Part shown: in pieces, positions 1 through 30,282 of the stretch | How the letters are laid out: each line of letters starts with the position of its first letter | Position numbering within the stretch: the first letter of the stretch is position 1 | Assembly: GCA_043803945.1 (NCBI GenBank) | Contig: JAZDJN010000018.1 | Span: forward strand, 1 to 64,000 | Reading direction: 5' to 3' | DNA length: 64,000 nt | Source of the DNA: a bacterium | GTDB lineage: Bacteria; Bacteroidota; Ignavibacteria; UBA10030 | Made by a program: the position numbers and the translations under genes | Notes under the pieces: model-generated | What the model saw: the letters and a program-made list of their open reading frames with translations, nothing else | What the model was told of the DNA's origin: nothing | Database searches by the model: none

Positions 1-272
1 CATTCAGACCTTCCGAAGGTTATACCGAGGTCTCATAGAGCCTTCGGAAGGTTGCGCAGGTTCATTCAGACCTTCCGAAGGTTATACCGAGAGCCCATAG
101 AGCCTTCGGAAGGTTGCGCAGGTTCATTCAGACCTTCCGAAGGTTATACCGAGGTCTCATAGAGCCTTCGGAAGGTTGCGCAGGTTCATTCAGACCTTCC
201 GAAGGTTATACCGAGATCTCATAGAGCCTTCGGAAGGTTGCGCAGGTTCATTCAGACCTTCCGGAAGGTTCA
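1..272. repeat. Tandem array of about 4.4 copies of a 62-bp unit (cattcagaccttccgaaggttataccgag..catagagccttcggaaggttgcgcaggtt). Each unit contains the 11-nt inverted pair ccttccgaagg/ccttcggaagg, predicting a hairpin with a ~21-nt loop. The array starts at the window edge, so it may be longer.
   Basis: Direct reading: units at 1-62, 63-124, 125-186 and 187-248 are near-identical, with the few substitutions confined to the loop. The whole unit is conserved (there are no variable spacers), so this is not a CRISPR array. Confidence 0.9.
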
Positions 273-369: not shown

Positions 370-3300
370 ATGAACCGTTTGATCAATGCTTTACTGGTTT
401 TTTGCGGGATATCATTATCTCTCATCGCAGAAGAATCCCGCCTTCTCCGTCAACCGACCGTCAGCGCAACACAGATTGCCTTCGTGTATGCCAACGATAT
501 CTGGATTGTTGAACGCACAGGCGGTGTTGCACGGCGATTAACAACGTCCGAAGGAGCAGAAACCGAACCTCGTTTCTCTCCCGACGGCAAATGGATTGCC
601 TTCACCGGCCAGTACGACGGCAACACCGATGTCTATCTTCTCTCTGCATCCGGCGGCGACCCGAAACGATTAACCTTTCACCCGAGCGCCGATGTCGTCC
701 GTGGCTGGACACCGGATGGAAAGTCTGTAGTCTTCAGCTCAGGCCGGATAAGTGCACCGGTCGGATTTCCGCGCCTCTGGTCGATTCCTGTCGAGGGCGG
801 ATTTCCTCAGCCACTCCCCATGGAGAATGCCCATAAGATTACATTCTCGCAAGATGGAAAGCGCATTGCCTATCTTCCTTTTGCAGAAGCATTTAATGTG
901 TGGCGTCATTACCGCGGAGGCAGAACTTCACGTGTATGGATCCTCGATTTGAAAACTCTTGAGCTTGAAAAAATTCCTCGCGACAATAGCAACGACACCG
1001 ATCCGACCTGGATTGACACGATTGTCTATTTCCTCTCCGATCGAAATAGTACGATGAATCTCTTTTCCTACGATACCAAAACAAACCAGATCGGGCAACT
1101 GACACAGCATAAAGACTTCGATATTCGTTCAGCATCTGGTTGTGCCGATGCGATAGTCTACGAACAGGCAGGATGGATTCACCTCTTCGATCCTAAAACA
1201 AAATCTTCAAAGAGGGTTTCTATCACGGTGAATGCCGATCTCCCGTGGGCTCGGCCTCACTTTGTTAAAGTGGCATCGATGATAAGAAATTTTGAACTCT
1301 CGCCAACCGGCTCACGTGCAGTGTTCGAAGCACGGGGTGACATCTTTACTGTGCCCGCCGAAAAGGGTGATGTCCGGAACCTGACAAACAGTACCGGTGT
1401 GCACGACCGCAATCCTGCATGGTCACCCGATGGCAAATCCGTTGCCTGGTTCTCCGATCAGGAGGATGAATACCAATTGATGATCGGTGAACAATCCGGA
1501 TTGACACCTCCGAAAGTCATCAAACTCGGCAAGGCGGGTTTCTATTATAATCCCCGCTGGTCTCCGGACTCGAAAAAAATCACGTTCACCGATAATCATC
1601 TGACACTCTGGTATCTCGATGTCGAAGATGGAAAACCTATTAAGATCGATGCCGACACCTACGACCACCCGCAGCGGACACTCGATGCAACCTGGTCGCA
1701 CGATTCGAAGTGGCTGACCTACAGCAAGCGCCTCGACAATCATATGCATGCTATCTTCGTCTATTCTCTTGCAGAGAAGAAGGTAACGCAGATTTCCGAC
1801 GGATTGTCCGATGCAATTTCTCCGGCATTCGACAAGAGCGGAAAATATCTCTACTTCCTCGCCAGTACGAACTTTGCACAAAACACCGGTTGGCTCGATA
1901 TGATGTCGTACGACCGGCCTGTCACACGAAGCGTCTATCTTACAGTGCTGGCAAAGGATACACTGTCGCCTTTTGCACCCGAGAGCGATGAGGAAAAGAT
2001 CGAATCCAAAGATACCACAGCCGTAAAGAAGGACGATGCAAAGGATAAGAAAGAGAAAAAGGATGCTGCTGCATCGAAAGATCTCAAGATCGATTTCGAT
2101 GGACTGGATCAGCGTATTCTTGCCGTCGAGAAAATTCAATCGCGCAACTATGTGGCGCTCGATGCAGCCGAAGGAATGATCTACTACCTCGAAAGTATAT
2201 CGAACCAAACCGGTCTGACGCTCCACTTCTTCGATCTGAAAAAACGGGAAGCAACTCAGATGTTGGCGGGAGTGAACGGCTTTGCAATTTCGTCGAACGG
2301 CAAGAAGCTTCTTTATGCCGCGTCCGGCAATACGTACGGCATTGTCGATGCAACGAAAGCGGCAAAGGTTGGAGACGGAAAGCTCAAGGTCGATATTATG
2401 GAGATGAAGATCGACCCGCGGGCAGAGTGGGCACAGATGTTCGCTGAAGCATGGCGCATCAACCGGGATTACTTTTACGATCCGAACATGCATGGTGCCG
2501 ACTGGAAATCGATCAAAGAGAAGTACGAACCGTGGGTGAAGTATGCCGGCCATCGTTCTGACCTTTCGTACATTCTTGCTCATATGATGGGCGAGCTCGT
2601 TGTCGGCCACAGCTACATTCAGGGCGGCGACGCACCCGCACCGCCTCAGGTGCAGGTTGGATTACTCGGGGCGGATTATGCCATTGAAGGGGACTACTAT
2701 AAAATAGCGACCATTTACACAGGTGAGAATTGGAATCCCGATCTTCGCGCACCGTTGACTGAACCCGGAAGCACGGTTACCGTCGGCGAATACATTCTTG
2801 CCGTGAACGGCAAACCGCTGAAAGTGCTTATGAACATTTATAGTTTGTTCGAAGGCACAGCCGGAAAACAAACGGTGCTCCTTGTCAATACTAAAGCGAG
2901 CGAGCAGGGTGCACGCAAGGTCACAGTAGTTCCCGTCTCAAGTGAAAACGGATTGCGCCAGCGTGCATGGATAGAGGGAAACCGACGAAAGGTTGATGAA
3001 CTTTCCAAGGGCCGGCTTGCCTATGTCTATCTGCCGAACACCGCGGGAGCCGGCTATACTAACTTCAATCGCTACTACTACACACAGATGCATAAAGAGG
3101 GCGCCGTCATCGATGAGCGTTACAACGGCGGCGGCTCGGCTGCAGATTACATGGTGGATATGATGAACCGGCCGTTGTTGAACTACTGGGCAACACGCGA
3201 CGGAAAGAATTTCCAGACACCCACCGCGGCAATCAATGGGCCAAAGGTTATGATTATTAATGAGCATGCTGGTTCGGGCGGCGATGCATTGCCGTACTAT

Positions 3301-3618
3301 TTCCGCGACCGGAAACTTGGGCCATTGGTTGGAACAAGAACGTGGGGCGGATTGGTTGGCATCTATGATTATCCCGTTCTCATCGATGGCGGAGCGGTGA
3401 CGGCACCACGCGTCGCCTTCTTCGAAAAGAACGGAAAGTGGGCGGTGGAGAATGAAGGCGTTCCTCCCGATGTCGAGGTAGAGCAATTACCCAAAGAAAC
3501 GGCTGGCGGGAAAGATCCACAACTCGAGCGGGCGGTCGCCGAAGCCTTAAAGCTTCTTGAAAAGAATCCGCTGAAGAAAATGGACCATGAGGCGTACCCG
3601 AAGCGGGTGAAGCAGTAA
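370..3618 (+). CDS. Tricorn protease homologue: N-terminal signal peptide, beta-propeller (TolB-like) domains, PDZ-like region and a C-terminal S41-type peptidase domain.
   Basis: 1082-aa ORF starting with ATG, preceded by aggag. The size, the N-terminal beta-propeller-like sequence (SPDGKWIAF) and the overall layout fit the tricorn protease family. Confidence 0.75.
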   Translation: MNRLINALLVFCGISLSLIAEESRLLRQPTVSATQIAFVYANDIWIVERTGGVARRLTTSEGAETEPRFSPDGKWIAFTGQYDGNTDVYLLSASGGDPKRLTFHPSADVVRGWTPDGKSVVFSSGRISAPVGFPRLWSIPVEGGFPQPLPMENAHKITFSQDGKRIAYLPFAEAFNVWRHYRGGRTSRVWILDLKTLELEKIPRDNSNDTDPTWIDTIVYFLSDRNSTMNLFSYDTKTNQIGQLTQHKDFDIRSASGCADAIVYEQAGWIHLFDPKTKSSKRVSITVNADLPWARPHFVKVASMIRNFELSPTGSRAVFEARGDIFTVPAEKGDVRNLTNSTGVHDRNPAWSPDGKSVAWFSDQEDEYQLMIGEQSGLTPPKVIKLGKAGFYYNPRWSPDSKKITFTDNHLTLWYLDVEDGKPIKIDADTYDHPQRTLDATWSHDSKWLTYSKRLDNHMHAIFVYSLAEKKVTQISDGLSDAISPAFDKSGKYLYFLASTNFAQNTGWLDMMSYDRPVTRSVYLTVLAKDTLSPFAPESDEEKIESKDTTAVKKDDAKDKKEKKDAAASKDLKIDFDGLDQRILAVEKIQSRNYVALDAAEGMIYYLESISNQTGLTLHFFDLKKREATQMLAGVNGFAISSNGKKLLYAASGNTYGIVDATKAAKVGDGKLKVDIMEMKIDPRAEWAQMFAEAWRINRDYFYDPNMHGADWKSIKEKYEPWVKYAGHRSDLSYILAHMMGELVVGHSYIQGGDAPAPPQVQVGLLGADYAIEGDYYKIATIYTGENWNPDLRAPLTEPGSTVTVGEYILAVNGKPLKVLMNIYSLFEGTAGKQTVLLVNTKASEQGARKVTVVPVSSENGLRQRAWIEGNRRKVDELSKGRLAYVYLPNTAGAGYTNFNRYYYTQMHKEGAVIDERYNGGGSAADYMVDMMNRPLLNYWATRDGKNFQTPTAAINGPKVMIINEHAGSGGDALPYYFRDRKLGPLVGTRTWGGLVGIYDYPVLIDGGAVTAPRVAFFEKNGKWAVENEGVPPDVEVEQLPKETAGGKDPQLERAVAEALKLLEKNPLKKMDHEAYPKRVKQ

Positions 3619-3626
3619 AGAAGGGG

Positions 3627-3680
3627 AGATCTTCCGAAGGTTATATAGAGACCTCATTGAGCCTTCGGAAGGTCTATCAG
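3627..3680. repeat. Single copy of the 62-bp hairpin repeat family (cttccgaaggttatatagagacctcattgagccttcggaaggt). It lies between the convergent 3' ends of the tricorn gene and the 527-aa membrane-protein gene, and overlaps the last 9 codons of the latter.
   Basis: Sequence identity to the unit of the array at 1-272. The inverted 11-mers are present. Confidence 0.85.
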
Positions 3681-5237
3681 TTCTTCTTCTTCTGATGTAA
3701 TCTTCATTCCGGGCAACACCAACATTGATAAGGCCAGGGAAAGGAATGGGTAGAAAATATCGATGAGAACATTCTGAGAGAAGAGATAGATGCTGGCCGC
3801 CAGAACAACAAGTCCCAGCACGAACATGAGGAACAGTGAGACCGCCTGTCTCAATCGCCAGACGATCAGTGCCGACAAACCGATGCACAGCAATGAAAGC
3901 CAGATGGAGCTGCTTTCGACAACCGTAAGAACATCGTTGTGCAGTAAAAAGGCCAGAGTTTTTGCATAAGCCCACGTTAGAAGATATCCTCGCTCTCTTG
4001 CCATGCCAAGATAATTCCAGTCGATCAGGATTATTTTGCCGCGATAAATCTCCGGTGTAATGTTTTCTATTGAAAACTCCTCCCAGCGCGAATCACGAAA
4101 ATGAAGTGTGTCCGAATTGAAATCCCTATATGCACTTATTGGTGAGAGGAGATACCACCAATCGACCCGGATTTCTCTCGGAAGATAGAGCCATCCATCG
4201 TGCGTTACCGGGAATTGATATGTTCCCAGAACAACATAATTGCCGCGCCGTCGTGCCTGCATGGTATCGGGATATCCATAATGCTTTTTAAGCAATTCCA
4301 CAGTTGCATCCGGGAGCTGATATTCCTCTTCATTGCCGGCACCCCATGCAACCCTATTGCCCGTTGGTTTTATCCGCATCAGCATCGATCTTGTTCCAAT
4401 ATCTTCAATCGACATTGAGTACATGCTCATTGGGATGTGCTTTGGGTCCACTGTATCCTCCTGAGCGATAAATGCATACGAGTAAGGATCCTGGAAAGTA
4501 AACACAGTGATTCCGAGTTGAGCCAGCCTGGCAAGTTTCGGACGCAATTTGTAGTGCATATCGCTGATATCGATTAGGATTGCTGTTGCACCGACCTCTT
4601 TCATTTTTTTTGCAATGCGGTAACAATCATCCAGATACTGCTTTTGATCATTGTTCACGGTATGGAGACCAAACCGCACTACCGGAATAGTATCTTTCCT
4701 GACCGTCGTTTTCTGTGCCTGCCCGCTTTTAAATCCCAGAGCAGTCTTTACTCCTTTTATCCCGCGTTCAACGGTTCGCTGGGTCTTTTCAATGAGGGCT
4801 GCTTCATTAAGCCTGCTGCTGATTTTCCAGCGATCCACCAGGTTTAAGCCCCCCATGAAAAGCATGAAGAGAGAGACGATGAATACGCCAATGACTATGC
4901 GAACACCGCTTCGCTGCATGCTCTGGAAATAAGCAGTCCGCACTGTGGCGGCTAATGATCCCTCATTGTTACTAAGCAAGTATTCAAGAACGCTCGGCAG
5001 TTTCTTTCGATGAACAAGAAGAGTTATGGCTATCGTAAGAAGCGGAAGAAAACAGATAAGCGAGAGAATCCAGAACGTCCATGGAATCCAGACATAATTG
5101 ATTTCATAGATACCATAGAAATCTCTGTGCGTCTCGATCATGGAATATTGATTTGTGAGAATAGCCATCAGAGCGAAGAATAACGCAAACAAAAAATATC
5201 TTCTTGCTCTCGTTCGAATATTCCTTTCCAGAGTCAT
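3654..5237 (-). CDS. Integral membrane protein with three N-terminal TM helices, a ~300-aa extracytoplasmic domain and three C-terminal TM helices. This is a CHASE2-like sensor topology with no output domain. It is the third gene of ECF sigma/anti-sigma module 1.
   Basis: 527-aa ORF lying 12 bp downstream of the anti-sigma gene. Hydrophobic segments are visible at both ends. It is a paralogue of the 518-aa ORF at 6942-8498. The CHASE2 assignment rests on topology and weak motif resemblance only. Confidence 0.5.
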   Translation of the reverse strand: MTLERNIRTRARRYFLFALFFALMAILTNQYSMIETHRDFYGIYEINYVWIPWTFWILSLICFLPLLTIAITLLVHRKKLPSVLEYLLSNNEGSLAATVRTAYFQSMQRSGVRIVIGVFIVSLFMLFMGGLNLVDRWKISSRLNEAALIEKTQRTVERGIKGVKTALGFKSGQAQKTTVRKDTIPVVRFGLHTVNNDQKQYLDDCYRIAKKMKEVGATAILIDISDMHYKLRPKLARLAQLGITVFTFQDPYSYAFIAQEDTVDPKHIPMSMYSMSIEDIGTRSMLMRIKPTGNRVAWGAGNEEEYQLPDATVELLKKHYGYPDTMQARRRGNYVVLGTYQFPVTHDGWLYLPREIRVDWWYLLSPISAYRDFNSDTLHFRDSRWEEFSIENITPEIYRGKIILIDWNYLGMARERGYLLTWAYAKTLAFLLHNDVLTVVESSSIWLSLLCIGLSALIVWRLRQAVSLFLMFVLGLVVLAASIYLFSQNVLIDIFYPFLSLALSMLVLPGMKITSEEEELIDLPKAQ

Positions 5238-5248
5238 CGCATATCCTC

Positions 5249-5698
5249 CTATTGAAGAAAGTGCTGCTGCCGATAAAGCATTTCATCATACTGCTGGCGG
5301 TCGACCTGTGACTGCTCTTGTTGATTTGTCGAAGCAAGCATTCCACCAACGAGAAACATCAGTAATAAGACAATGACCGAAGGCAGGGACACAGGGATCA
5401 TGCGGTCCCATGGTGGCCGTTGATACTGTGTAGGTCTTGATTCCTTCATCGCCCGAAGATGTCCCGGAATCTGTGTGTCGGTTGCCCAGAGCTGCCGGAA
5501 CACCTTCTCATCGACTTGCTCAGATAATGGAAGGGGTTTCCATGCCGCTGTTGCAACGCGGGTTTTGTTTGTTGAGCTATAGAATGTCCTGCACGCCTCG
5601 CATTGTGCAAGATGAGCAAACACCTCGGCATACCGTTGCTTACCAAGCCGGTTGTCAAATAGCGTGCTGATTTCCTGTTGATATGATTCACATGTCAT
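5249..5698 (-). CDS. Anti-sigma factor with an N-terminal zf-HC2 motif (HLAQCEAC) and a single C-terminal TM helix.
   Basis: 149 aa. The H-x3-C-x2-C motif and a hydrophobic helix (SLPSVIVLLLMFLVGGML) are present, and it sits directly downstream of an ECF sigma gene. Confidence 0.7.
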   Translation of the reverse strand: MTCESYQQEISTLFDNRLGKQRYAEVFAHLAQCEACRTFYSSTNKTRVATAAWKPLPLSEQVDEKVFRQLWATDTQIPGHLRAMKESRPTQYQRPPWDRMIPVSLPSVIVLLLMFLVGGMLASTNQQEQSQVDRQQYDEMLYRQQHFLQ

Positions 5699-5882
5699 AA
5701 ACTCACCTTTTGGTTTTGCGAACTAAGAAGAAGACAGATAAACCGCCCTGCCCGCCGCAAGCGGTGCGCAGGCAGGCAAGGGCGCCAAAACGCTAAATAT
5801 TCTTTTAAACTATCTGAGATTAAATATTTCATATACCTTCGTGTCTTGGCGTTCTTGGCGGCTCATTCTTTATCCTAGGCTC

Positions 5883-6422
5883 TCAATCTTTATAATACGT
5901 TAAAATCTTCTTCGCCAATTCTTTGCGTGCACGGAAGATGCGCGACTCCACAGCGCTGACGGAAACACCGGTGATCCCTGCAATCTCTTCGTACGACAAT
6001 CGCTCATATTCCAGCAGGTGTAATACTTCGCGATGTTCCGCTTTCAACCGGGTCAACATGACCTGCACCAATTCAATTTCCTCGGTGTGGACAAGTTGTT
6101 CATGAGGCGTCTCTTCATCGATAACCTCTACATCGTCAAGTGAACCGTTGCCTCTCTTTCGCCGTAACTGCGAGTAGACCTCGTTGCGGGCAATAGCATA
6201 GAGCCATCCCTTAACAGCCGCACAGTTGTGCAGTTGATCGAGTGAAGTAAGGAATTTCAAAAAAGTTGTCTGCACGGCATCCTCCGCACTCTCAACACAC
6301 TGGAGCAAACGGAGAGCGTAGTGATAGATTGCCTGTTTATGCCGGTTGTACAACTCGGCGGCAGCGCGGACATCGTGTTGCTGCGCTTTCAGTACAAGTT
6401 CACTATCGGTTGATTCTTGCAT
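5883..6422 (-). CDS. RNA polymerase ECF-type sigma-70 factor (module 1).
   Basis: 179 aa. Sigma-70 region 2 (YLYAIARNEVYSQLRR-like) and region 4 HTH (LSYEEIAGITGVSVSAVESRIFRARKEL) are recognisable. Confidence 0.85.
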   Translation of the reverse strand: MQESTDSELVLKAQQHDVRAAAELYNRHKQAIYHYALRLLQCVESAEDAVQTTFLKFLTSLDQLHNCAAVKGWLYAIARNEVYSQLRRKRGNGSLDDVEVIDEETPHEQLVHTEEIELVQVMLTRLKAEHREVLHLLEYERLSYEEIAGITGVSVSAVESRIFRARKELAKKILTYYKD

Positions 6423-6654
6423 ACGGAATGTTGCTCTTCTTGAAAAAGATCAATCCCGCACTGTCGGTAAACCGCTGAAGGTATCATAGGAACGCCGACT
6501 CTCCTTAAGCCCCTTTCTACTAAAGACGCCCGAAGGGAGAGAAACTTGCAGGAACGTAGGAAAAAATGTGAAGGAATGATAGGAAGAGCGTAGGAGAGTA
6601 AGAGAGTGAGAGGGTATGATGGGGAGGGTGGGTGGAGACAGCGAGACGGGGAGA

Positions 6655-6800
6655 AGGGGAGCTCGACCTTCGGAAGATTCTTCAGATTCATTCAGACCTT
6701 CCGAAGGTTATACCGAGACCTCTTAGAGCCTTCGGAAGGTTCAAGCATCTAGACCTTCCGAAGGTTATACCGAGACCTTTTAGAGCCTTCGGAAGGTTCA
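6655..6800. repeat. Two further tandem copies of the 62-bp hairpin repeat family, in the intergenic/5' leader region of the module-1 sigma gene.
   Basis: ccttccgaaggttataccgagacctcttagagccttcggaagg appears twice, with 10-20 bp variable linkers. Confidence 0.85.
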
Positions 6801-6846
6801 CTTTTGCTCGCACTCCTGTTCTCTGCAATCTGCCTTCTGCTGTCCG

Positions 6847-6950
6847 ATTAACAAGGGTGTCAGGAACCACTTCCTGACGCATCTATCGAAAATCCATTCC
6901 GGTCTACAAGCAGACTTTTCTTTCAATCTAAGTCAATCCGCTTAAGTATC
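6847..6950 (-). promoter_or_regulatory. Copy 1 of a ~105-bp direct repeat ('S' element) shared with 9598-9705. In gene orientation it contains GGAAG/GGAAC-N16-TTGTTAAT, a possible ECF-type promoter, plus the hairpin gtcaggaa-ccac-ttcctgac. It lies upstream of module 1, separated from the sigma gene by the 62-bp repeats.
   Basis: About 80% identity between the two copies over ~105 bp. Both copies sit 5' of an ECF sigma gene on the same strand. Confidence 0.35.
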
Positions 6951-8498
6951 GGCGCTGAAATAATTCCCTCCACTCCACAGATGTACATACTTCACAACAG
7001 AAAATAGCGGCAAAGAAATGATGACGGCAAGAAGGGGAAGCGTCATATCAATGAGGTAATTATTATTATAGAAAAGGTACGCCCCGCCGGAGAGAAGGAG
7101 AAGCGCAAGGGCAACAACCGAGAGTGAAGCAAGAAGGAAACGGAGATAGTATACCAACAATGCTGTGGCAAGAATACAAATTGCCATGACCCAATACGGT
7201 GTTTTTTCTGCAATAGTAATAAGCTTACCGCCAAGAATACTTTCAACCGCTTCCACATAACTGTATTTTCCCCCCCATCCTGAATACACATTTGAACGCG
7301 CTTCTTCTAAAAAAACGATCTTTCCCTGATACCGTTGCTCGTTATATCCCATTCGTAACCGCAATGGATCTTTTATGTACTCTTTCTGATTCTCTGCATC
7401 AATAACATTGTTTTTCTTTGTTGATGGCCTTATTTCCGCTTGAACAACAGAATGAAAGGCATCGTACTCGCTCAAGGGTGAAAAACTAGCCCGATAATAT
7501 ACTCGTTGATCTTTGGTAAGGGGCAAGACAACGTTGCCAAAGATGATCGCGTTATCTTTGCGGATGAGCGTTACCGTATCGGCATAGGATAAGTGTTTTC
7601 TGAGTAATTCAATTGCAATGTCTGGAACAGGTGCATCTCTCCTTCTTTCCCATTCCGTTGTCAATTCAAATGAAGACCGTATACTTTGCGGCACTCCAAA
7701 CGGTTGAATGCAGCTCAATGAATTACTCCAGCCGAGTTCACGAATCGGAATTGTCTTTGCCGCCATTGGAAGTGGTATCACTTTTCCAAGCGAATCAAGA
7801 AATAATAGTTTAGATCCATAATTCAATCCAAACACAACAATGCCCGTTTTAGCCAAATCCTTCATCAAGCGTATCCTCTCACCACGCATTTCTTCCGCTT
7901 GAATGAGTACTGCTTTCACTCCTATTTCTTTCAAAGCCAGAACTGCTGCAAGGTATGCTGCGTGATATTGCTCTTGGTCAAGACCGGCTGAAAAAATTGG
8001 TGCTACTTCGACTAAGCGTTGCTGGTTTTGATGTATTGCTTTCTTTTTCACGACTGACAGTAGTCTGTAGATATCGGCATTGGGAATTCGAAGATTGATG
8101 AAGCCAATTTGAACAATGGAACCCGCAATGAAGATCGCAGCTAAACCGGCAAAGGCAAGTTGAACACTTAGGCGGCTCAGATATGTAGAGATAGCATTTT
8201 GATAAGCGGTGACCTTTCTTTGGAAGCCTTCCTGGAAAAAACCCTCTAATGCCTCTGGTAATATTTTTCTCTCGTGCAGCACCGAGAGAAGCGTTCGAAT
8301 TACCGGCAGGAAACATACTATGGAGAACACAATAAAAACAACCGGCATCCACGAAATATTTGTCCTGACAGTTACTGGGAATGTACTTGTCCGGATGACA
8401 GAAACGTTAATTGTTAGAATTGCCAGTATCCAAAAGAAAAGAGTCAGCACAATGCAGAGAAGGAGAGCGCTTGTCGATAATTTGTTTTTTTGTTCCAT
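6942..8498 (-). CDS. Integral membrane protein, paralogue of 3654-5237 (3TM–loop domain–3TM, CHASE2-like topology). Third gene of ECF module 2.
   Basis: 518-aa ORF lying 14 bp downstream of the anti-sigma gene, with the same architecture as the 527-aa protein. Confidence 0.5.
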   Translation of the reverse strand: MEQKNKLSTSALLLCIVLTLFFWILAILTINVSVIRTSTFPVTVRTNISWMPVVFIVFSIVCFLPVIRTLLSVLHERKILPEALEGFFQEGFQRKVTAYQNAISTYLSRLSVQLAFAGLAAIFIAGSIVQIGFINLRIPNADIYRLLSVVKKKAIHQNQQRLVEVAPIFSAGLDQEQYHAAYLAAVLALKEIGVKAVLIQAEEMRGERIRLMKDLAKTGIVVFGLNYGSKLLFLDSLGKVIPLPMAAKTIPIRELGWSNSLSCIQPFGVPQSIRSSFELTTEWERRRDAPVPDIAIELLRKHLSYADTVTLIRKDNAIIFGNVVLPLTKDQRVYYRASFSPLSEYDAFHSVVQAEIRPSTKKNNVIDAENQKEYIKDPLRLRMGYNEQRYQGKIVFLEEARSNVYSGWGGKYSYVEAVESILGGKLITIAEKTPYWVMAICILATALLVYYLRFLLASLSVVALALLLLSGGAYLFYNNNYLIDMTLPLLAVIISLPLFSVVKYVHLWSGGNYFSADT

Positions 8499-8511
8499 AT
8501 CAATCTCCTGG

Positions 8512-8928
8512 TTACTGGGTCTGTTGGCTTAACCCAACAGCATCCGACGAAGATGATTCTACTGATGATACCGTGGAAGAGAACAACACACCAAAGAACA
8601 GCACAAGAATGAATGCTATCGCTCCGTCAATTATACGTTGCGGAAAGCTCTGCCTTGATCTTATGGGGACACGATCTCCCTGAATTCGTTTTCCCTCTGC
8701 AGAAAGACGTGCCTGACTCATAATTTTTTCATCCAGGTCGCTCGATAGAGAGGAAACGGAAAGTGTAAGCAAATCCTTCCGCAACTGGAGCATCGACCGC
8801 AGGAAGTACCGGCAGTCTTTACATTGTTCTCCATGAGCAAGGACTTGAACTACTTCCTCGTCTTGCAGTTCATTATCGAGAAACTGGCTGCTCAATTCTT
8901 TAACTATCTCACAATTCATTGCTCTCAC
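8512..8928 (-). CDS. Anti-sigma factor, zf-HC2 (HGEQCKDC), with a C-terminal TM helix.
   Basis: 138 aa. The motif and a hydrophobic helix are present. It overlaps the 3' end of sigma gene 2 by 20 bp. Confidence 0.7.
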   Translation of the reverse strand: MRAMNCEIVKELSSQFLDNELQDEEVVQVLAHGEQCKDCRYFLRSMLQLRKDLLTLSVSSLSSDLDEKIMSQARLSAEGKRIQGDRVPIRSRQSFPQRIIDGAIAFILVLFFGVLFSSTVSSVESSSSDAVGLSQQTQ

Positions 8929-9475
8929 CTCGTATGCAGTACTGTTGTGTATAATGTTTTATTAAAGCCCGTCGTGCTTTGAAAACCCGTGACTTTACGG
9001 AACTCTCCGTATCTCCTGTAACAACTGCAATCTCGGCGTAGGACATTCCCTCATACTCACAGAGAATCAACACTTCGCGATATTTTGGCAACAATGAGTC
9101 GAGAAGGAGTTGAAGAATCTCCTTTTTTTCTTTTTCCATCACATTTTCTAATGGTGTTTGTAGATTCAAAAACTCTCCTGAGTCTTCATCGAATTCTCGC
9201 TTTACATGTTCTTTCTGCATGTGTTTATACGCTTCATTCCTTGCTACAGAAAATATCCATGCTCGAAAAGATGTTGGTGAGAGAATATCCAATGCCGATT
9301 GATAGGTTTTCAGAAAGGTGTCCTGCACAATATCTTCTGCTATGGTTCGATCTTTGACCAGCCGATAAGCAAACGCATGAATCCGATCTTTATAGCGTCT
9401 ATAGAGGCTTTCAAAAGCGCTGGTACTTCTATTTTGGATTAATGCAAGAAGCTGCTCATCGGAAAGTGACGGCAC
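8909..9475 (-). CDS. RNA polymerase ECF-type sigma-70 factor (module 2).
   Basis: 188 aa. Region 2 (IFSVARNEAYKHMQK) and region 4 (MSYAEIAVVTGDTESSVKSRVFKARRAL) are recognisable. Confidence 0.85.
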   Translation of the reverse strand: MPSLSDEQLLALIQNRSTSAFESLYRRYKDRIHAFAYRLVKDRTIAEDIVQDTFLKTYQSALDILSPTSFRAWIFSVARNEAYKHMQKEHVKREFDEDSGEFLNLQTPLENVMEKEKKEILQLLLDSLLPKYREVLILCEYEGMSYAEIAVVTGDTESSVKSRVFKARRALIKHYTQQYCIRGESNEL

Positions 9476-9597
9476 AGAATCTCCTCAGTATCTTGTGATC
9501 CTTTGCACGGATAATGTCCATAACGATCCAGAAACATTCAACTGCTCCCGTAATCTCTGTTTACAAGATAGATCGATGAGACAAGAAAAAGTTGCTC

Positions 9598-9705
9598 ATT
9601 AACAAGGGCATCAGAAACCAGTTCCTGACGCATCTATCAGAAAGCCATTCCGTGCTGCAATCACCACATTCTTCTAACCTAAGTCAACGTGGATACGTAT
9701 CGACC
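9598..9705 (-). promoter_or_regulatory. Copy 2 of the ~105-bp 'S' element, ~120 bp upstream of sigma gene 2. The GGAAC -35-like box is present.
   Basis: Alignment with 6847-6950. The GGAACTGG…TTGTTAAT arrangement is visible. Confidence 0.35.
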
Positions 9706-9842
9706 TCGAAGATTCGCCGCTGGTACATCAATATACGCACCCGGTATCCTCATTTCTCCAATAAAACTCCTCCTCTTGCCAATCTGAAGAGCATTGCGTA
9801 GAATGCACCGCATAGTTGTTCATACCATAGAAAAGGACATGT

Positions 9843-12191
9843 ATGAATCGCCGCGACGCCATCAAACTTACCGGACTTGCATTAAGCTCGGTCGTCCTTC
9901 CTTCCATCAGCAGATCCGGGCAGTTCGAATATCTTGACCTTCCAATCGATCAGGATCATCTGAAGCAACTTGAACGGCTGCGCGGCGAACGACCAGCATA
10001 CTCTTCTGTAAAGATCGAACGGGGCGGGCCGCGGCTCTTCATTAACGGAAAAGAAGAATACCCCTTCTTCGCCGGAAGCTCCGGACTCATTCATACCATA
10101 AAAAGTTTTAAGGAGTCGGGCATAAAATTTTTCCATCCACTCATCAGTATTGAAGCCGGGTGGATTGGAGCGAAGAAGTACGAATGGTCGGGAGTTGACA
10201 ATTACCTCGCCCGCTTGCTTGCTCTTGTTCCCGATGCAGTTTTCCTCCCGCGCATCCATCTCTATGCTCCCGATTGGTGGAAGGAATCTCATCCCGATGA
10301 AGTGGTAAGCTATGGGCTTCCCATCGATGTTCTGTTCAATAAAATGGAGAAGCTTATCATCGACAGCGGATTGAATTGGAATTGTGTACTCGATGCGTAC
10401 GGAGCATCGCTCGCCTCCGAGATCTGGCAACGCGACATGGGTGAAACACTCCGGAGTTTTCTTCGGCACATGGAGCAATCGCCGCTCCAAAGCAGAATTA
10501 TCGGGTATCATTATGTCGGTGCGATGACCGCCGAGTGGCATTACACCGGCGCGCGGTACCTGCCGGATTACAGCAAGCCGATGCAGCGTGTTGCCGGCCC
10601 TGTCCCCACAAAAGAGCAGCGGATGACTACAACAAGCGGTTTATTGCGCGACCCGGAGAAAGAACAGCCTGTCATAGACTTTTATAGAAGGTTTCACGAG
10701 AACACCGCTGCCGTCGCTGCTCACTTTGCCGGGATTATAAAACAGGAAACGAAACGCCGCGTCGTTGTCGGTACGTTCTTCAGTTATGTCCTTGAAAATG
10801 TCAGTATCCAGGAGGCGGGACACCTTGTGCCGCATGCAGTGCTGAACTCGAAGGATATCGATTACCTCGCCTGTCCCTACACCTACGAGCATGGCAACGT
10901 CCCCGGTAAGCAGCGATGGGAAAGTGATATTATCGACGATACCGGACGCTTGCTTGGCCGTGCGCGCGGTGTCGGGGGAGACGGCGGTTTCAGAATTTTA
11001 TTGGAATCTCTGCGTCGGCACAAAAAACTGTTCATCTCCGAAATCGATCCGGCAACATATCTCGAGCCGGTAAAGACAACCGAAGGCGGAACTGGATTCG
11101 ATACACTGGAAGGCACGTTGCGTATCCTCCGCCGCGATATCACACAGGTCTTTGCACAAGGATGCGGCGGCTGGCTTTTTGAATTCGGACACATTCCCTC
11201 CTTCAAGGCCAATCGGGGCTGGTATGACAGTGAACCCATGATCAAAGAAGTCCGGGGATGGATGGAGCTCGGTCAGAAGCGGCCTGAGCTTGCCGTCGAT
11301 TCCGTTGCTGAAATTGCTGCGGTGTACGACGTCAAGAGCTTTTTTGCTACACAACATTGGAAAGCCGAGGAGCCCTGGGGAGGATTTGGTATTTCCATCT
11401 CTGATTTCTTCAACCACTGGCTGCTCAATACGCAGGCACGCACTATTCACCGCATCGGAGCGCCGGTCGATTTTCTCTATCGTTTCGATCTCAGAATATC
11501 CGATGCGCGGCGCTATAAGCTCTTTATCATGCCAAACCTCTTTTACCTGACAGCCAATGAAGTGCAACAACTGCGCATCATGTTCAAAGGGAGCGGTGCA
11601 ACGGTGATCTGGTATTACGCACCAGGATACATCACACCAAAACGATTTGACCTCCATCAAATGGAGATGCTGACCGGATTCAAATTCGAGCGCATCGATC
11701 AGCCGGGTTCTATGATGATCGATTGCGCAGAGGGGCGTGAGCTTCTCGGTTTCGGTGAAAAGTTCGGTGTGAAGAAAGACCATTTTCCACGATTCGTTGT
11801 CGATGCTTCCGCTTCGCCCGTACGTGTGCTCGGCCGATGGACAGACAACAACGAAGTTGCCTTTGCGAGAAGAGACTATGAGGGATGGAAATCCGTTTAC
11901 GCCGGCAGCGGCCCGCTTCCGGTAGAACTCCTCCGCCCACTTGCCGAAAAGGCCGGCGTGCGTTTGTGGTCTTCGGAGCCCGATGTGATTCGTGCAACCC
12001 GCGACGCCGTAATGATTACAGCCACAAGCAAAGGGGGGAGAACGTTGCAGCTTCACAAACGAATGCGACCGAGTGAAACCAGCAATCTTGCCATAGAGCA
12101 TACGCTCGAGATGGAGCATGGCGATGTGAAGGTGTTTGTGGGGGGAAAGGAAGTGCACCAAAGGCGCATGCGCCTTCGGCGCAAAGTATAA
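9843..12191 (+). CDS. Tat-exported glycoside-hydrolase-like protein. A TIM-barrel-like N-terminal part is followed by a GH42-type (beta-galactosidase middle/trimerisation, GATase1-like) domain.
   Basis: 782 aa. Twin-arginine signal MNRRDAIKLTGLAL. The segment YKLFIMPNLFYLTANEVQQLRIMFKGSGATVIWYY resembles the GH42 middle domain. Confidence 0.45.
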   Translation: MNRRDAIKLTGLALSSVVLPSISRSGQFEYLDLPIDQDHLKQLERLRGERPAYSSVKIERGGPRLFINGKEEYPFFAGSSGLIHTIKSFKESGIKFFHPLISIEAGWIGAKKYEWSGVDNYLARLLALVPDAVFLPRIHLYAPDWWKESHPDEVVSYGLPIDVLFNKMEKLIIDSGLNWNCVLDAYGASLASEIWQRDMGETLRSFLRHMEQSPLQSRIIGYHYVGAMTAEWHYTGARYLPDYSKPMQRVAGPVPTKEQRMTTTSGLLRDPEKEQPVIDFYRRFHENTAAVAAHFAGIIKQETKRRVVVGTFFSYVLENVSIQEAGHLVPHAVLNSKDIDYLACPYTYEHGNVPGKQRWESDIIDDTGRLLGRARGVGGDGGFRILLESLRRHKKLFISEIDPATYLEPVKTTEGGTGFDTLEGTLRILRRDITQVFAQGCGGWLFEFGHIPSFKANRGWYDSEPMIKEVRGWMELGQKRPELAVDSVAEIAAVYDVKSFFATQHWKAEEPWGGFGISISDFFNHWLLNTQARTIHRIGAPVDFLYRFDLRISDARRYKLFIMPNLFYLTANEVQQLRIMFKGSGATVIWYYAPGYITPKRFDLHQMEMLTGFKFERIDQPGSMMIDCAEGRELLGFGEKFGVKKDHFPRFVVDASASPVRVLGRWTDNNEVAFARRDYEGWKSVYAGSGPLPVELLRPLAEKAGVRLWSSEPDVIRATRDAVMITATSKGGRTLQLHKRMRPSETSNLAIEHTLEMEHGDVKVFVGGKEVHQRRMRLRRKV

Positions 12192-19275: not shown

Positions 19276-20808
19276 CTATAGAACGGACTTGATGCTCTGG
19301 CAAAACTGGAGAAGATCGCTTCCCGCGATATCTGGAAGAGACATGGAAGCCAGAATTCGAAAGATCCTTCTCGTACTCTTGAGTTCACCTTTCCACCAGT
19401 CTTCATTGTGAAGCTTGTCTGCAAGTTGACGCCAAGGTGGAACATCGGGATTAATTTTCTCGAGTTGACTTGGGACGATCGAACCGAAGGCCGCGCGAAC
19501 TGCAGCCAGTGTATAGTAGTTCTCTAAGCAGTACCTTGAAAGTTGTATCGGGATTAAACCAATCTTACGGCAATTCGCTATGAATGCATTCTGCGCGGCA
19601 GTGTTGCTGGTGTCAAGATCCAACAACGCGAAGGTGTTTCGAATCTGAACAAATGGAGTAGGGTCGAAATACATCATCATTGATCCAGCAAGAAAGACAT
19701 GAGAAACTGAGGCGCTACGGGATGCTCCTAACCAGTTCCTTACGATATAGTCTATGACAAGCAAATCTGTTTTACCCTCGGTAATGAGAACTGCGTCCGA
19801 GGTCAGGTTATCAATGGCGAGGACTCCAATGTTAGATAAAGCATCTGCACGGCTGGTGTTGTCGTCAATTGTTATCTCACCATTGTCGTATTTGCAGAAG
19901 TATATTCGATCGACCAGATCTGGATTTAGAAAGACGGGCGAGTGGGTCGAAAGAATAAACTGCCGATCTTCAACTGAGTTCAAGAATGAGAGTAGTTTCC
20001 GTTGGAGGTCCGGATGCAAGTGGTTTTCTGGCTCCTCGACAAGCAACAACTGGTTATCACCGTCGAGCGAATAAAGAAGAATTGACAATAGCTCAGGGAG
20101 TCCGAGCCCTTCATTTTGTGCAGGAATCCAGGGACCGCCAATTTTTCTGAACTGTAATTGAATGCCTGGCGGGTGGCGATCCCTGAGCATCTGAATGTCA
20201 AACTCGTTTCCGGTGATGTCGCAAAAACTCGAATGGATTCGGTCGAAGACGAGTCTCTCAGCAGTATCTGGCATTTGGTTCTTCAGATAGAACAGACGGG
20301 ACAATGCGTTTGCGGCCTCAGAGTCCAGGTTTTCCATTGGGTGTGCTTCAGTCTCAGGTGGCAGCCTCCTTTTTGGAGATAGAAGCAGAGGCTTACCGCC
20401 TTCGATCACATGGGAAATTAGTGCGTGTGCAATGCGTTTGGCGTCAATATCAAGACCATATGTCCTCACGAGGGATGTCTGTTTGCACTCGTCGACTAAG
20501 GCCAAGGCCTTGGACTCAGAACTACAGAAGAGTATCTCGCCATCTAGACGGTGCATTATTTTGGCTACCCAATCGTCAATTTCGTGCCGAGAGGGTTGAG
20601 CGTAGTTTGCGATTTGGCCACGTACAACGGATTCTGTCTTGGGCGACTGTTGGTACGTGACTCCAATATCGGTGTATTCAACTATCTTTCTGAGGATGGT
20701 CGATTTACCGCTAGAATTTCTTCCGGTGATAATGTTGACTTTGCCCAAGTCTAAGAGAGTCTGGGATTTTATCACCGGAGATGAGTCGACATGCAGGTGT
20801 TGAATCAT
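19276..20808 (-). CDS. OLD-family nuclease: N-terminal ABC-type ATPase (Walker A GRNSSGKST; Walker B/D-loop LLLVEEPENHLHP) and C-terminal Toprim domain (ITEGKTD … LLDLDTS).
   Basis: 510 aa. The P-loop, ABC signature-like region and Toprim glutamate/DxD motifs were all read directly. Confidence 0.65.
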   Translation of the reverse strand: MIQHLHVDSSPVIKSQTLLDLGKVNIITGRNSSGKSTILRKIVEYTDIGVTYQQSPKTESVVRGQIANYAQPSRHEIDDWVAKIMHRLDGEILFCSSESKALALVDECKQTSLVRTYGLDIDAKRIAHALISHVIEGGKPLLLSPKRRLPPETEAHPMENLDSEAANALSRLFYLKNQMPDTAERLVFDRIHSSFCDITGNEFDIQMLRDRHPPGIQLQFRKIGGPWIPAQNEGLGLPELLSILLYSLDGDNQLLLVEEPENHLHPDLQRKLLSFLNSVEDRQFILSTHSPVFLNPDLVDRIYFCKYDNGEITIDDNTSRADALSNIGVLAIDNLTSDAVLITEGKTDLLVIDYIVRNWLGASRSASVSHVFLAGSMMMYFDPTPFVQIRNTFALLDLDTSNTAAQNAFIANCRKIGLIPIQLSRYCLENYYTLAAVRAAFGSIVPSQLEKINPDVPPWRQLADKLHNEDWWKGELKSTRRIFRILASMSLPDIAGSDLLQFCQSIKSVL

Positions 20809-23864: not shown

Positions 23865-25493
23865 TTATTTCTGAATACTCTTTTCCTCTCCCTGAGCGAC
23901 CACTCTCATCGGCTGCTGCCTGTTACCAAGCTCCGTTGTTATTTCATAGACAAGCTGTGTGAGCTTTTGCATCTTCTCGAAATCGATATTCTCCGCATCG
24001 TCTGTAGGACGGTGAAGGTCATCGTGCCGGCCGGAAAAGAAAAATGCAACGGGTATGCCCTGCCGGTGGAAGCTCATATGATCGCTTCCAGCCATCGAAC
24101 GATCCTCCGAATCGAAATCAAGCGGCCAGTTCACCGTGACACTGTTGACGCTGTCAATCAACCTTCTCAACTCCGGATTCGTTTTGTCCGATCCGATCAC
24201 GTAATGCCTTCGCGATTGCTGGGACCCGGGGTCCGAGCGGCCAATCATATCGAGATTCACATTTACAGTAATGTTCTTTACGGGGAAAGGGCAGTTGGCA
24301 ACAAAATATCGTGAACCAAGAAGCCCCGACTCTTCCGCCGTGTACAAGCAGAAGAGCACCGGCCTCCGCGGCGGCTTCTGAGCAATAGCTTTTGCAACTT
24401 CGAGTACACCGATGCTTCCGCTTGCATTGTCGTCGGCACCGTTGCAGATCTGCCCATTGAGCGACTTCACATGGTCGAGGTGAGCGCCAAGCGTTATATA
24501 TTCATTCGCAACGGCACCGTCCCTTCCTGGAACCATGCCCACAACATTCATGCTCTCAAATTCTTCACCGGCGGTTTTCAATCCAAGACTGATTTTTACA
24601 TCAGCCAGATCGAAGGATTGATATCCCTTCAATCCTTCTTTTTCAATATCATGCGGATTATACCGCTGGTTGCTAAACAGTGTTTTTACGAGCGTTCCTT
24701 TTATTATTCCAATCATCGCGGGACCCGGCGGAAGCGTAAGCGGTTGATCCTTTGGTTTAGAGACAATCTGCAGTGTGTTGAATGCATCGTTCAACATGTT
24801 CCATTGTGCCGTATGTTCTGTATCGGCGATCACGAATACCGCAGCAGGCATGTTCTGCCGGAAGAAGGGGCTCGAGAGAATTTTTTTGCGGGTCCCCATG
24901 AGTGAGGCATAACTGTTCTGCACGCTGTCAGGAAAGATGTTTTTACCGTCGCGTCGCGGTGCTCCCATCAGAAGCAGAACAACCTTCCCTTTAACCTCCA
25001 CATTCTGAAGATCATTCCAGCCATAATCGGGCTCAGAAATACCGTATCCGACAAACACGGCAGGGATATTCGTCAGGGATGGCCCGCGTGCCTGAAGCCT
25101 GAGGTCTTCGAGCGTCTGGAACACTCTCTCACCGGCTGCCGTTGTAATCGTCAGCGGTTCATCAACGACTGTTCTTACCTTCACAAGCGGCACCATCTGG
25201 AAATAGGTCTCGTTGCCATTGGCATCTTTGATGACCGGTTTTACTCCGGCTGCTTTCAATTGATCTGCGGTGTACTGTGCAGCGATTGTAAATCCTCTGT
25301 CGTCGGGGCGGCGGCCGCCGAGCGAATCGGCGGCAAGAATGAACATATGCTTTTTCAGTTCCTGCAGTGTGATCGTGCTGGCTTTCGACTGAGCATTCAA
25401 CGCCTGGAAGGGGACAAGGATTATCACAAGCAGAATCGCCATCAGCGATATGCTTCCCAGGGTTGTTGTCAACCTAAATTTTCGATTGCACAT
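23865..25493 (-). CDS. M28-family peptidase with a PA (protease-associated) domain, secreted.
   Basis: ATG at 25493 preceded by aggagg. Signal peptide present. The zinc aminopeptidase motifs HLDH and NGADDNASG, plus ES and a distal H, are typical of M28. Confidence 0.75.
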   Translation of the reverse strand: MCNRKFRLTTTLGSISLMAILLVIILVPFQALNAQSKASTITLQELKKHMFILAADSLGGRRPDDRGFTIAAQYTADQLKAAGVKPVIKDANGNETYFQMVPLVKVRTVVDEPLTITTAAGERVFQTLEDLRLQARGPSLTNIPAVFVGYGISEPDYGWNDLQNVEVKGKVVLLLMGAPRRDGKNIFPDSVQNSYASLMGTRKKILSSPFFRQNMPAAVFVIADTEHTAQWNMLNDAFNTLQIVSKPKDQPLTLPPGPAMIGIIKGTLVKTLFSNQRYNPHDIEKEGLKGYQSFDLADVKISLGLKTAGEEFESMNVVGMVPGRDGAVANEYITLGAHLDHVKSLNGQICNGADDNASGSIGVLEVAKAIAQKPPRRPVLFCLYTAEESGLLGSRYFVANCPFPVKNITVNVNLDMIGRSDPGSQQSRRHYVIGSDKTNPELRRLIDSVNSVTVNWPLDFDSEDRSMAGSDHMSFHRQGIPVAFFFSGRHDDLHRPTDDAENIDFEKMQKLTQLVYEITTELGNRQQPMRVVAQGEEKSIQK

Positions 25494-25859
25494 GGTGAAT
25501 CCTCCTGACATGGTATGGATGATTGGGGCCGATACTATGAATAGGCGCGTCGTTCTATTAAATAGAATACGCTGTCTCCTAAGACGGGTTTTCAAATGGG
25601 TAAGTTTCAAGGACGCCGGGTGAGGAGGATAGATGGTACAGAACCACGGTTCAGCGGTACAAAGTGGCGGTGTTTTTCTCGTTCTTGACATTTCTCGTTC
25701 CCAAACTCCGTTTGGGAACGCAGACTGAAAAGCTCTGCTTTACCAATCAAACAGCTAATTGTTACTTATGTTCAGAATAATACAGGCGGAGCTTGATAGG
25801 CATCATTTAATAGCAGAGTGTTTGCGCGAGAGAAATAATGGAGGTCGTATTATTTGTTT

Positions 25860-30090: not shown

Positions 30091-30282
30091 TGAATAATGA
30101 TAGGAGAAAACAAAGCCAATGTTAAGATCACCGCAACAGAGATCGTTAAGAAAGTTTTCTATAGTTACCCGGTTTGAAGGCTCTGGCCACCCGCGTTCGC
30201 GGGTGAAACACGTTCCTCTTTGGTTTTCATCTATTTTTTCTCTAAACTTTCGCCAACAACATCAACTTGGAAAGGATGCCTC

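Follow-up and report, generated by a model that had tools for sequence, protein, structure and literature searches.

Sigma factors of the extracytoplasmic function (ECF) type rank among the commonest signaling devices of bacteria, and for most of their groups no input is known. The CHASE2 sensor domain is widespread, and little is known of its ligands or of how it works. Here, we describe two tandem three-gene units in a 64,000-nucleotide stretch of bacterial DNA (GTDB lineage Bacteria; Bacteroidota; Ignavibacteria; UBA10030; NCBI GenBank assembly GCA_043803945.1, contig JAZDJN010000018.1, positions 1 to 64,000 of the forward strand; hereafter the window), each encoding an ECF sigma factor, a zf-HC2 anti-sigma factor with a single transmembrane (TM) helix, and a large membrane protein, called M below, which is distantly related to CHASE2. 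Precedents for a separate membrane sensor or partner acting on a small anti-sigma factor are CnrX-CnrY-CnrH (PMC6851896) and SigM-YhdL-YhdK (PMC11081497). The SigM-YhdLK complex is thought to be controlled allosterically and not by proteolysis, and YhdK has been described only as an integral membrane protein that acts with YhdL (PMC11081497).

We consider it reasonably probable that each unit is a three-component ECF cassette in which M would act as a periplasmic sensor in trans, controlling an anti-sigma factor that has no sensor of its own. The division of roles, with M as sensor and the anti-sigma factor as output, is drawn from the combination of an anti-sigma factor without a sensor and a sensor homologue without an output, which are invariably coencoded with minimal spacing. 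ECF systems of three components, the sensor being a protein of its own, are already known, and the cassette is therefore not a new category. It nonetheless looks like an undescribed signaling cassette: a full-text literature search returned no system linking CHASE2 with an ECF or anti-sigma factor, the co-mentioning paper listed being a general survey of signaling capacity, and the ECF reclassification paper (Casas-Pastor 2021) has no mention of CHASE in its text, its supplementary group descriptions lying outside the search.

Two sigma/anti-sigma units and their candidate promoters

Between positions 3654 and 9475, the minus strand carries six open reading frames (ORFs) arranged as two head-to-tail units of three genes (Table 1), just as a preliminary description made from the sequence had laid them out. 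Pfam and NCBIfam matches in both units bear out the identities given there to the first two genes. The sigma factors contain Sigma70_r2 and Sigma70_r4_2 and no other Pfam domain (E 1e-14 to 5e-17), and both pass the NCBIfam sigma70-ECF model TIGR02937 with 91 to 96 bits against a cutoff of 42.9. They have the make-up of ECF factors, with the sigma2 and sigma4 domains only, lengths (179 and 188 amino acids [aa]) within the range of ~170 to 200, and a zf-HC2 anti-sigma gene at +1, as is also found in all related loci. Neither reaches an NCBIfam equivalog, the best (sigma_PG0214/GFO_1088) giving 111.9 bits versus a cutoff of 130; the best-scoring models for both carry the names of Bacteroidota proteins.

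The two anti-sigma factors score 30.3 and 27.0 bits with zf-HC2 (cutoff, 22.2). Anti-sigma1 has the motif HLAQCEAC, a TM helix at ~103 to 121, and a 28-aa tail beyond it, while anti-sigma2, which starts with GTG and has an ATG three codons further in, has HGEQCKDC, a helix at ~99 to 117, and a 21-aa tail. The N-terminal class I zinc-binding anti-sigma (ZAS) motif H-x3-C-x2-C is present in 11 of the 12 anti-sigma factors analyzed, and all 12 have a single TM helix and an extracytoplasmic tail of just 17 to 32 aa, which is not conserved. Judged from these sequences, the anti-sigma factor is without a sensing domain of its own, and tails of 17 to 32 residues are in line with sensing having been handed over to M.

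That the units are paralogous follows from the alignment of all three protein pairs: 36% identity for the sigma factors (E 4e-36), 26% for the anti-sigma factors (E 3e-12), and 27% over the full length for M1 and M2 (E 3e-39). At this level of identity, the two units are read as true but old paralogues, from different subclades. Sigma1, of subfamily I, is 60% identical to the sigma factor of the related locus L001 and 54% identical to that of L003, and the locus sigma closest to sigma2 is that of L004 (46%). In both units, only 11 to 13 nucleotides (nt) separate the anti-sigma gene from that of M, which makes cotranscription plausible.

In most loci, the motif GCAA[CG]-N16-[CG][AG]TCT occurs 65 to 165 nt upstream of the sigma gene, always with a spacer of 16 nt. 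The window holds exactly two matches (0.08 expected), each upstream of a sigma gene. As the motif has the shape of an ECF-dependent promoter, autoregulation of the sigma genes from it is likely. The variant GCAAG...GCGTCT is common to sigma1, L001, and L003, while sigma2 groups with loci that use GCAAC...G[AC]ATCT (GCATCT). The promoter variants track the sigma phylogeny, which, together with the only 36% identity of sigma1 and sigma2, indicates that the tandem pair either goes back to an ancient duplication or brings members of two subfamilies side by side. The two cassettes are probably insulated, parallel pathways.

A membrane protein remotely related to CHASE2

Hydropathy and an AlphaFold2 (AF2) model agree with the topology first proposed for M, three TM helices, a loop of ~300 aa, and three more TM helices. 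In M1 the helices span ~2 to 29, 50 to 76, and 110 to 131 and then 443 to 461, 464 to 487, and 495 to 526, and the loop (~135 to 440) is modeled as mixed alpha/beta (predicted local distance difference test [pLDDT] 81.7, predicted TM-score [pTM] 0.76); an AF2 run on the two paralogues alone, with a pLDDT of 44, was of no use. Lys and Arg are concentrated at three sites, the N terminus, the TM2-TM3 loop, and the TM4-TM5 turn. Because of this distribution of positive charges (positive-inside rule), the ~300-aa loop is placed outside the cytoplasm and should be periplasmic. The C terminus stops 15 to 20 aa past TM6 and bears no domain, so the output fusion of CHASE2 proteins is absent, and Pfam finds no kinase, cyclase, or other output domain in either M1 or M2, as expected from the preliminary description. 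Neither protein matches a Pfam family even at E ≤ 1 or any NCBIfam model, a Foldseek search of the M model against the PDB gave no match, and a sequence-profile search of the PDB with the M family returned only spurious matches to designer repeats. The public annotation of M1 (P0001; hypothetical protein, 512 aa) begins 15 codons past the ATG at 5237 (region 5193 to 5237). We prefer the 527-aa form that starts at this ATG, given the family alignment, in which a positively charged N terminus is conserved.

A full HMMER scan with an M1/M2 profile retrieved 129 cluster representatives, most of 470 to 550 aa; 29 had E values below 1e-30. Word-indexed searches with M1, with a 30-sequence family alignment, or with a loop-only alignment recovered only the query itself or four proteins; TM-rich words probably swamp the candidate lists of such searches, and for M the exhaustive HMMER scan is needed. 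The 30 best relatives align with M over their full length. Two modules can be told apart in M1, a family-specific N-terminal module of two TM helices (1 to 105) and a CHASE2-like TM-loop-3TM module (~110 to 513). The former, at profile positions 1 to 105, matches solely proteins of ~500 aa without an output domain. The motifs conserved in the family are W-x-FW where TM2 begins and LHxRxxLP in the cytoplasmic TM2-TM3 loop; GAKAVL, GIVVFG, DVTLELLRKY, FGDYRIPVT-DGWMY, GKIVLL, and AYA in the periplasmic loop; and R-x-RP and IDIFYPLLS in the last helices.

The preliminary description called M reminiscent of CHASE2 sensors. This holds as remote homology and fails as membership of Pfam CHASE2 (PF05226), to which M itself gives no hit (E ≤ 1). 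The relatives of ~500 aa likewise have no Pfam CHASE2 hit (69-member scan, E ≤ 0.01), and no core member of the M family has any Pfam domain. The remote matches of the profile, on the other side, include Pfam CHASE2 proteins (E down to 2e-49), and remote relatives carry C-terminal Guanylate_cyc or SpoIIE domains. When the 30-sequence family alignment was compared by hhalign with seven remote relatives, of which six pass Pfam CHASE2, the probability was 99.6% (E 5e-24, 354 columns). The comparison pairs M1 114 to 523 (TM3, loop, and TM4 to TM6) with the TM helix, periplasmic domain, and three TM helices of CHASE2, and the CHASE2 topology of one TM helix, an extracytoplasmic domain of ~300 aa, and three TM helices is found in M1 at ~110 to 513, the outside location being taken from charges. 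A bridging relative of ~420 aa, P0033 (type B), matches the M profile with E 5e-25 and just passes Pfam CHASE2, at 26.9 bits against a cutoff of 26.3. By these sequence comparisons, M is a divergent CHASE2-type module, related to CHASE2 and outside the Pfam family.

No match of the loop to an unrelated transporter or enzyme family turned up. Among transporters, the RND, SecDF, and sterol-sensing-domain proteins have 1+5 helices per repeat, and M has neither this arrangement nor membership in those families. The near-invariant residues of M are W50, W53, L80, P81, G216, V245, D310, K318, G338, P343, G348, Y424, W446, Y496, P497, and P509, and in the 30-sequence alignment these do not include His, Ser, Cys, or Glu residues that could form a catalytic-type set. 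This bears on a reading in which M would be an enzyme directed at the anti-sigma factor, such as a membrane protease of the PrsW-like site-1 type. Multipass proteases do control single-pass anti-sigma factors elsewhere (PrsW/RsiW), and the type B relative P0046 has a subthreshold Peptidase_M50B-like match over its TM region (E 0.002, 18 bits versus a cutoff of 26). The family, though, lacks HExxH and conserves no His, Ser, Cys, or Glu; M1 and M2 match no protease family; and anti-sigma tails this short would not require trimming at site 1. We rejected the protease or enzyme reading on the lack of catalytic-type residues and of a protease family match, and regard it as very improbable.

Two decayed copies of M were seen elsewhere: a 143-aa C-terminal remnant with no sigma gene nearby (L023, 3492 to 3923) and a frameshifted M (L011, 4001 to 5927) in a metagenome-assembled genome (MAG) labeled as Bacteroidetes. 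A TM-anchored domain of ~110 aa with the motif GGGG(K/R)SF and no Pfam match recurs near cassettes. In P0007 and P0027 it extends M at the C terminus, beyond a seventh helix, and elsewhere it is a separate ORF upstream of sigma or follows another anti-sigma-like ORF (L011, 2341 to 2727; L022, 1048 to 1815).

Conservation of the trio and the proposed role of M

To establish the company that M keeps, gene context was examined for family members picked over the whole E-value range of the profile scan. Context was readable for 14 distinct relatives that share the architecture of M; all 14 have M together with the sigma/anti-sigma pair, and in each the order is an ECF sigma factor (~150 to 240 aa), a small protein (120 to 162 aa), and M, on one strand. 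The loci are those of P0003, P0004, P0005, P0008, P0017, P0030, P0034, and P0053, the very distant members P0112 and P0125 (profile E 1e-5 and 2e-4), three more metagenome loci (L020, L021, and L022), and a MAG labeled "uncultured Bacteroidetes bacterium," in which M is frameshifted. One additional locus ends at a contig edge, with the anti-sigma gene and then M still visible. The gap between anti-sigma and M genes ranges over the loci from -11 to 32 nt, and a reading of the trio as chance juxtaposition was rejected. P0033 and P0046, which have one N-terminal helix only, are not linked to sigma genes and adjoin STAS or SpoIIE genes. The N-terminal two-helix module and its conserved cytoplasmic loop thus set sigma-linked M apart from other CHASE2-like proteins.

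Metagenome contigs and MAGs of uncultivated bacteria are the source of every family member found, and study of the cassette would therefore need heterologous reconstitution. A locus search with peptide patterns gave one locus in GTDB species genomes and eight in JGI metagenomes, counts that, the patterns being narrow, are no measure of abundance; M1 alone had no close relative in JGI metagenomes. The MAG label, the names of the NCBIfam models, and a neighboring gene with a type IX secretion system (T9SS) sorting domain in L003 hint weakly at a Bacteroidota affiliation of the cassette family. In L002 (L017; Ga0194125_10002912), a second sigma/anti-sigma pair of the same family stands in tandem upstream of the cassette (L002, 783 to 2657) and is followed by a 263-aa protein with a TonB_C domain in place of M, which suggests that the third component is exchangeable.

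In the mechanism we propose, the ECF sigma factor would be held at the membrane by a class I anti-sigma factor that has a single TM helix and almost nothing in the way of an extracytoplasmic domain. Sensing would be the task of cotranscribed M, with its ~300-aa periplasmic domain and last four helices as the divergent CHASE2 module, while its N-terminal helix pair, the LHxRxxLP loop, and the TM bundle would touch the TM or juxtamembrane region of the anti-sigma factor. A periplasmic or envelope signal would alter the complex of M and anti-sigma and so set sigma free. Release might be allosteric, like that of CnrX-CnrY or YhdLK, or M might shield a stub-like anti-sigma factor until the signal exposes it to a site-2 protease; a short tail of this kind resembles the site-1-cleaved stub known from RseP biology. 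The freed sigma factor would then transcribe its own operon from GCAA[CG]-N16-[CG][AG]TCT. A more far-reaching version, which we hold to be possible and put forward tentatively, is that CHASE2-type sensors have an output mode that had gone unrecognized: by way of an added pair of helices and contacts within the membrane, they would signal in trans to a ZAS anti-sigma factor of stub-like form, a ready site-2 substrate. The trio would then be a new ECF group, and the tandem would comprise two insulated channels that differ in promoter specificity.

A stoichiometric complex would account equally well for the strict synteny and the close spacing of the genes. In it, M would be a constitutive co-anti-sigma factor or stabilizer and no ligand sensor, keeping the short anti-sigma factor in the membrane or shielding it there, YhdK-like or as a guard against the site-2 protease, with the signal sensed elsewhere, for example as membrane state, a lipid intermediate, or another protein. 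The tails of 17 to 32 aa look like the stub left by site-1 cleavage of RseA-type anti-sigma factors, a likeness suggested by the size filtering known for RseP, and YhdL-YhdK offers the precedent of a complex responding to membrane lipid. A conserved periplasmic domain of ~300 aa with homology to sensors seems, however, too costly for a mere scaffold, and the periplasmic motifs GAKAVL, DVTLELLRKY, FGDYRIPVT-DGWMY, and GKIVLL are among the best-conserved parts of M. We therefore think such a role unlikely.

Several points weigh against the proposed mechanism. Genes cotranscribed with an ECF sigma factor can be members of its regulon and not regulators, and M might accordingly be an effector in transport, lipid handling, or assembly, induced by the sigma factor under stress and outside the signaling path. 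Pairwise identities of the three proteins do covary across loci, which speaks for a unit (r = 0.77 for sigma and anti-sigma, 0.49 for sigma and M, and 0.47 for anti-sigma and M), but the value for sigma and M is modest and the pairs are not independent. Besides the missing Pfam match of M itself, the M family has not kept the CHASE2 motifs D-x-x-S...G-x-PW-x-R and D...TP...PGV-x-HA, which the CHASE2 consensus contains and for which the family consensus has other residues. Even for characterized systems, little is known of the ligands of CHASE2 or of its mechanism, and the homology consequently tells little about the signal of M. Finally, the promoter motif was defined partly post hoc and is missing or present only as a variant in ~4 of 16 loci. 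We still rank the stabilizer, effector, and protease readings lower than a sensor role for M, an effector outside the signaling path being, in our estimate, improbable.

Should M prove to be such a sensor, ECF-directed transcription would join the outputs served by CHASE2-type sensors, and the promoter of the sigma gene itself would be a genetically simple readout of what such domains sense. The cassette would also be a further case of a sensor split from its anti-sigma factor, beside CnrYXH and SigM-YhdLK.

Noncoding elements, neighboring genes, and known systems

Upstream of both modules lies a noncoding element, D2, whose copies (105 to 145 nt) are 76% identical, with 80% mean column identity over an aligned stretch of 171 nt, compared with 24 to 36% for the module proteins. 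Its 30-nt core occurs only twice in the window, and three substitutions in its hairpin keep pairing through G-U on the minus-strand transcript. D2 was not found upstream of sigma in other related loci. It may reflect gene conversion, or it may be a shared operator or second promoter or a terminator relic. GGAAT-N16-CGTC, inside D2, was the first promoter candidate and was discarded, as it is not conserved in other loci and the family motif lies closer to sigma.

Table 1. Genes and noncoding elements of the two units in the window
Feature	Position	Strand	Description	Basis
Sigma2	8909..9475	-	ECF (group IV) sigma factor, 188 aa, subfamily II	Pfam, NCBIfam TIGR02937
Anti-sigma2	8512..8928	-	zf-HC2 single-pass anti-sigma factor, 138 aa	Pfam zf-HC2, E 4e-7
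M2 (P0002)	6942..8498	-	CHASE2-like membrane protein, 518 aa, 6 TM helices, no output domain	Hydropathy, HMMER, alignment
Sigma1	5883..6422	-	ECF sigma factor, 179 aa, subfamily I	Pfam, NCBIfam
Anti-sigma1	5249..5698	-	zf-HC2 single-pass anti-sigma factor, 149 aa	Pfam zf-HC2, E 5e-6
M1	3654..5237	-	CHASE2-like membrane protein, 527 aa, 6 TM helices	Hydropathy, HMMER, hhalign, AF2
Module 2 promoter	9570..9595	-	Candidate autoregulated ECF promoter, GCAAC-N16-GATCT	Family motif
Module 1 promoter	6524..6549	-	Candidate autoregulated ECF promoter, GCAAG-N16-CGTCT	Family motif
D2, upstream of module 2	9598..9702	-	Noncoding	GGAAT-N16-CGTCA and hairpin
D2, upstream of module 1	6847..6951	-	Starts at the M2 stop codon	Sequence identity
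Spacer hairpin	5740..5800	-	GC-rich hairpin, then U-rich tract, in the 184-nt sigma1/anti-sigma1 spacer	Minimum free energy -51.6 kcal/mol, z -3.4
REP-like units	6689..6800		Two hairpin repeat units between D2 and module 1 promoter	Repeat search, folding

A long spacer between the sigma and anti-sigma genes (116 to 184 nt) with a strong GC hairpin is found in the window (5699 to 5882, minus strand) and in L002 (3410 to 3583), L004 (1817 to 1931), and L011 (3422 to 3587); in other loci, the two genes overlap instead. The hairpin is a possible attenuator, by which the ratio of sigma to anti-sigma would be set. An Rfam scan of 3400 to 10000 gave nothing credible.

The window also contains a 62-nt hairpin repeat resembling repetitive extragenic palindromic (REP) elements and built on CCTTCCGAAGG / CCTTCGGAAGG, with 29 motif matches against 1.1 expected (fold z -4.9). 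There are 4.3 tandem copies at the start of the window (1 to 270) and two copies 5' of module 1, and another copy, at 3622 to 3676, overlaps the last codons and the stop of M1. The units upstream of module 1 belong to a genome-wide repeat and are probably not part of the system. A CT-rich tract of low complexity (ctccccttctccccgtctcgctgtctccacccaccctcccc...) lies between them and the module 1 promoter, at 6560 to 6660 on the minus strand. Secreted or periplasmic peptidases are abundant nearby (370 to 3618, plus strand; 23865 to 25691, minus strand; 30220 to 32415, plus strand), their types being a tricorn-like S41 protease with PD40 repeats, an M28 peptidase, and an S46 dipeptidyl-peptidase. 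The gene at 19276 to 20808 (minus strand), which may serve in defense, encodes 510 aa with AAA_21/AAA_15 ATPase domains (AbiEii/OLD-like).

How does the cassette compare with described systems? CHASE2 modules (PF05226) of adenylate/guanylate cyclases, histidine kinases, and PP2C/SpoIIE phosphatases, such as those of Sinorhizobium meliloti CyaD1, CyaD2, and CyaK, have the same succession as M of a TM helix, an alpha/beta domain of ~300 aa, and three TM helices. Both share the motifs AK(A/V)(V/I)xxD and GKIVL(L/I), a helix with (H/Y)A...IL that precedes the TM bundle, and, within the last helices, D..YP. Unlike these modules, M has no fused cytoplasmic output (cyclase, kinase, GGDEF, or phosphatase), has two extra N-terminal TM helices and a conserved cytoplasmic loop, and is always encoded behind an ECF sigma/anti-sigma pair.

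Canonical ECF/ZAS pairs (with RsrA-like motif; membrane-bound zf-HC2 factors such as RsiW, or ChrR-type anti-sigma domains) likewise have a sigma factor of sigma2 and sigma4 only, an N-terminal H-x3-C-x2-C domain in the anti-sigma factor, and cotranscribed genes, the last being probable for the cassette. The candidate promoters described here have the ECF shape, with AAC in the -35 and CGT in the -10 element and a 16-nt spacer. Membrane-bound ZAS relatives usually have an extracytoplasmic domain of their own, whereas the anti-sigma factors of the cassette have 17 to 32 nonconserved residues and an invariable third protein.

SigM-YhdL-YhdK of Bacillus subtilis (PMC11081497) has the same operon order of sigma factor, anti-sigma factor, and multipass membrane partner. 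No homology is found between YhdK and M. We take YhdK to be small and to lack a large extracytoplasmic domain. CnrY-CnrX-CnrH of Cupriavidus metallidurans (PMC6851896) is also similar in that a minimal single-pass anti-sigma factor controls an ECF sigma factor and a separate inner-membrane periplasmic sensor is encoded in the same operon. Transfer there is by contacts between the two membrane proteins, as would be the case for M and its anti-sigma factor. CnrX, however, is a metal sensor with a single TM helix and a four-helix bundle, whereas M has six TM helices and is CHASE2-like; CnrY is a class II anti-sigma factor without a zinc motif, whereas the anti-sigma factors described here are of class I (zf-HC2); and the gene order differs, with no sequence relationship between the two systems.

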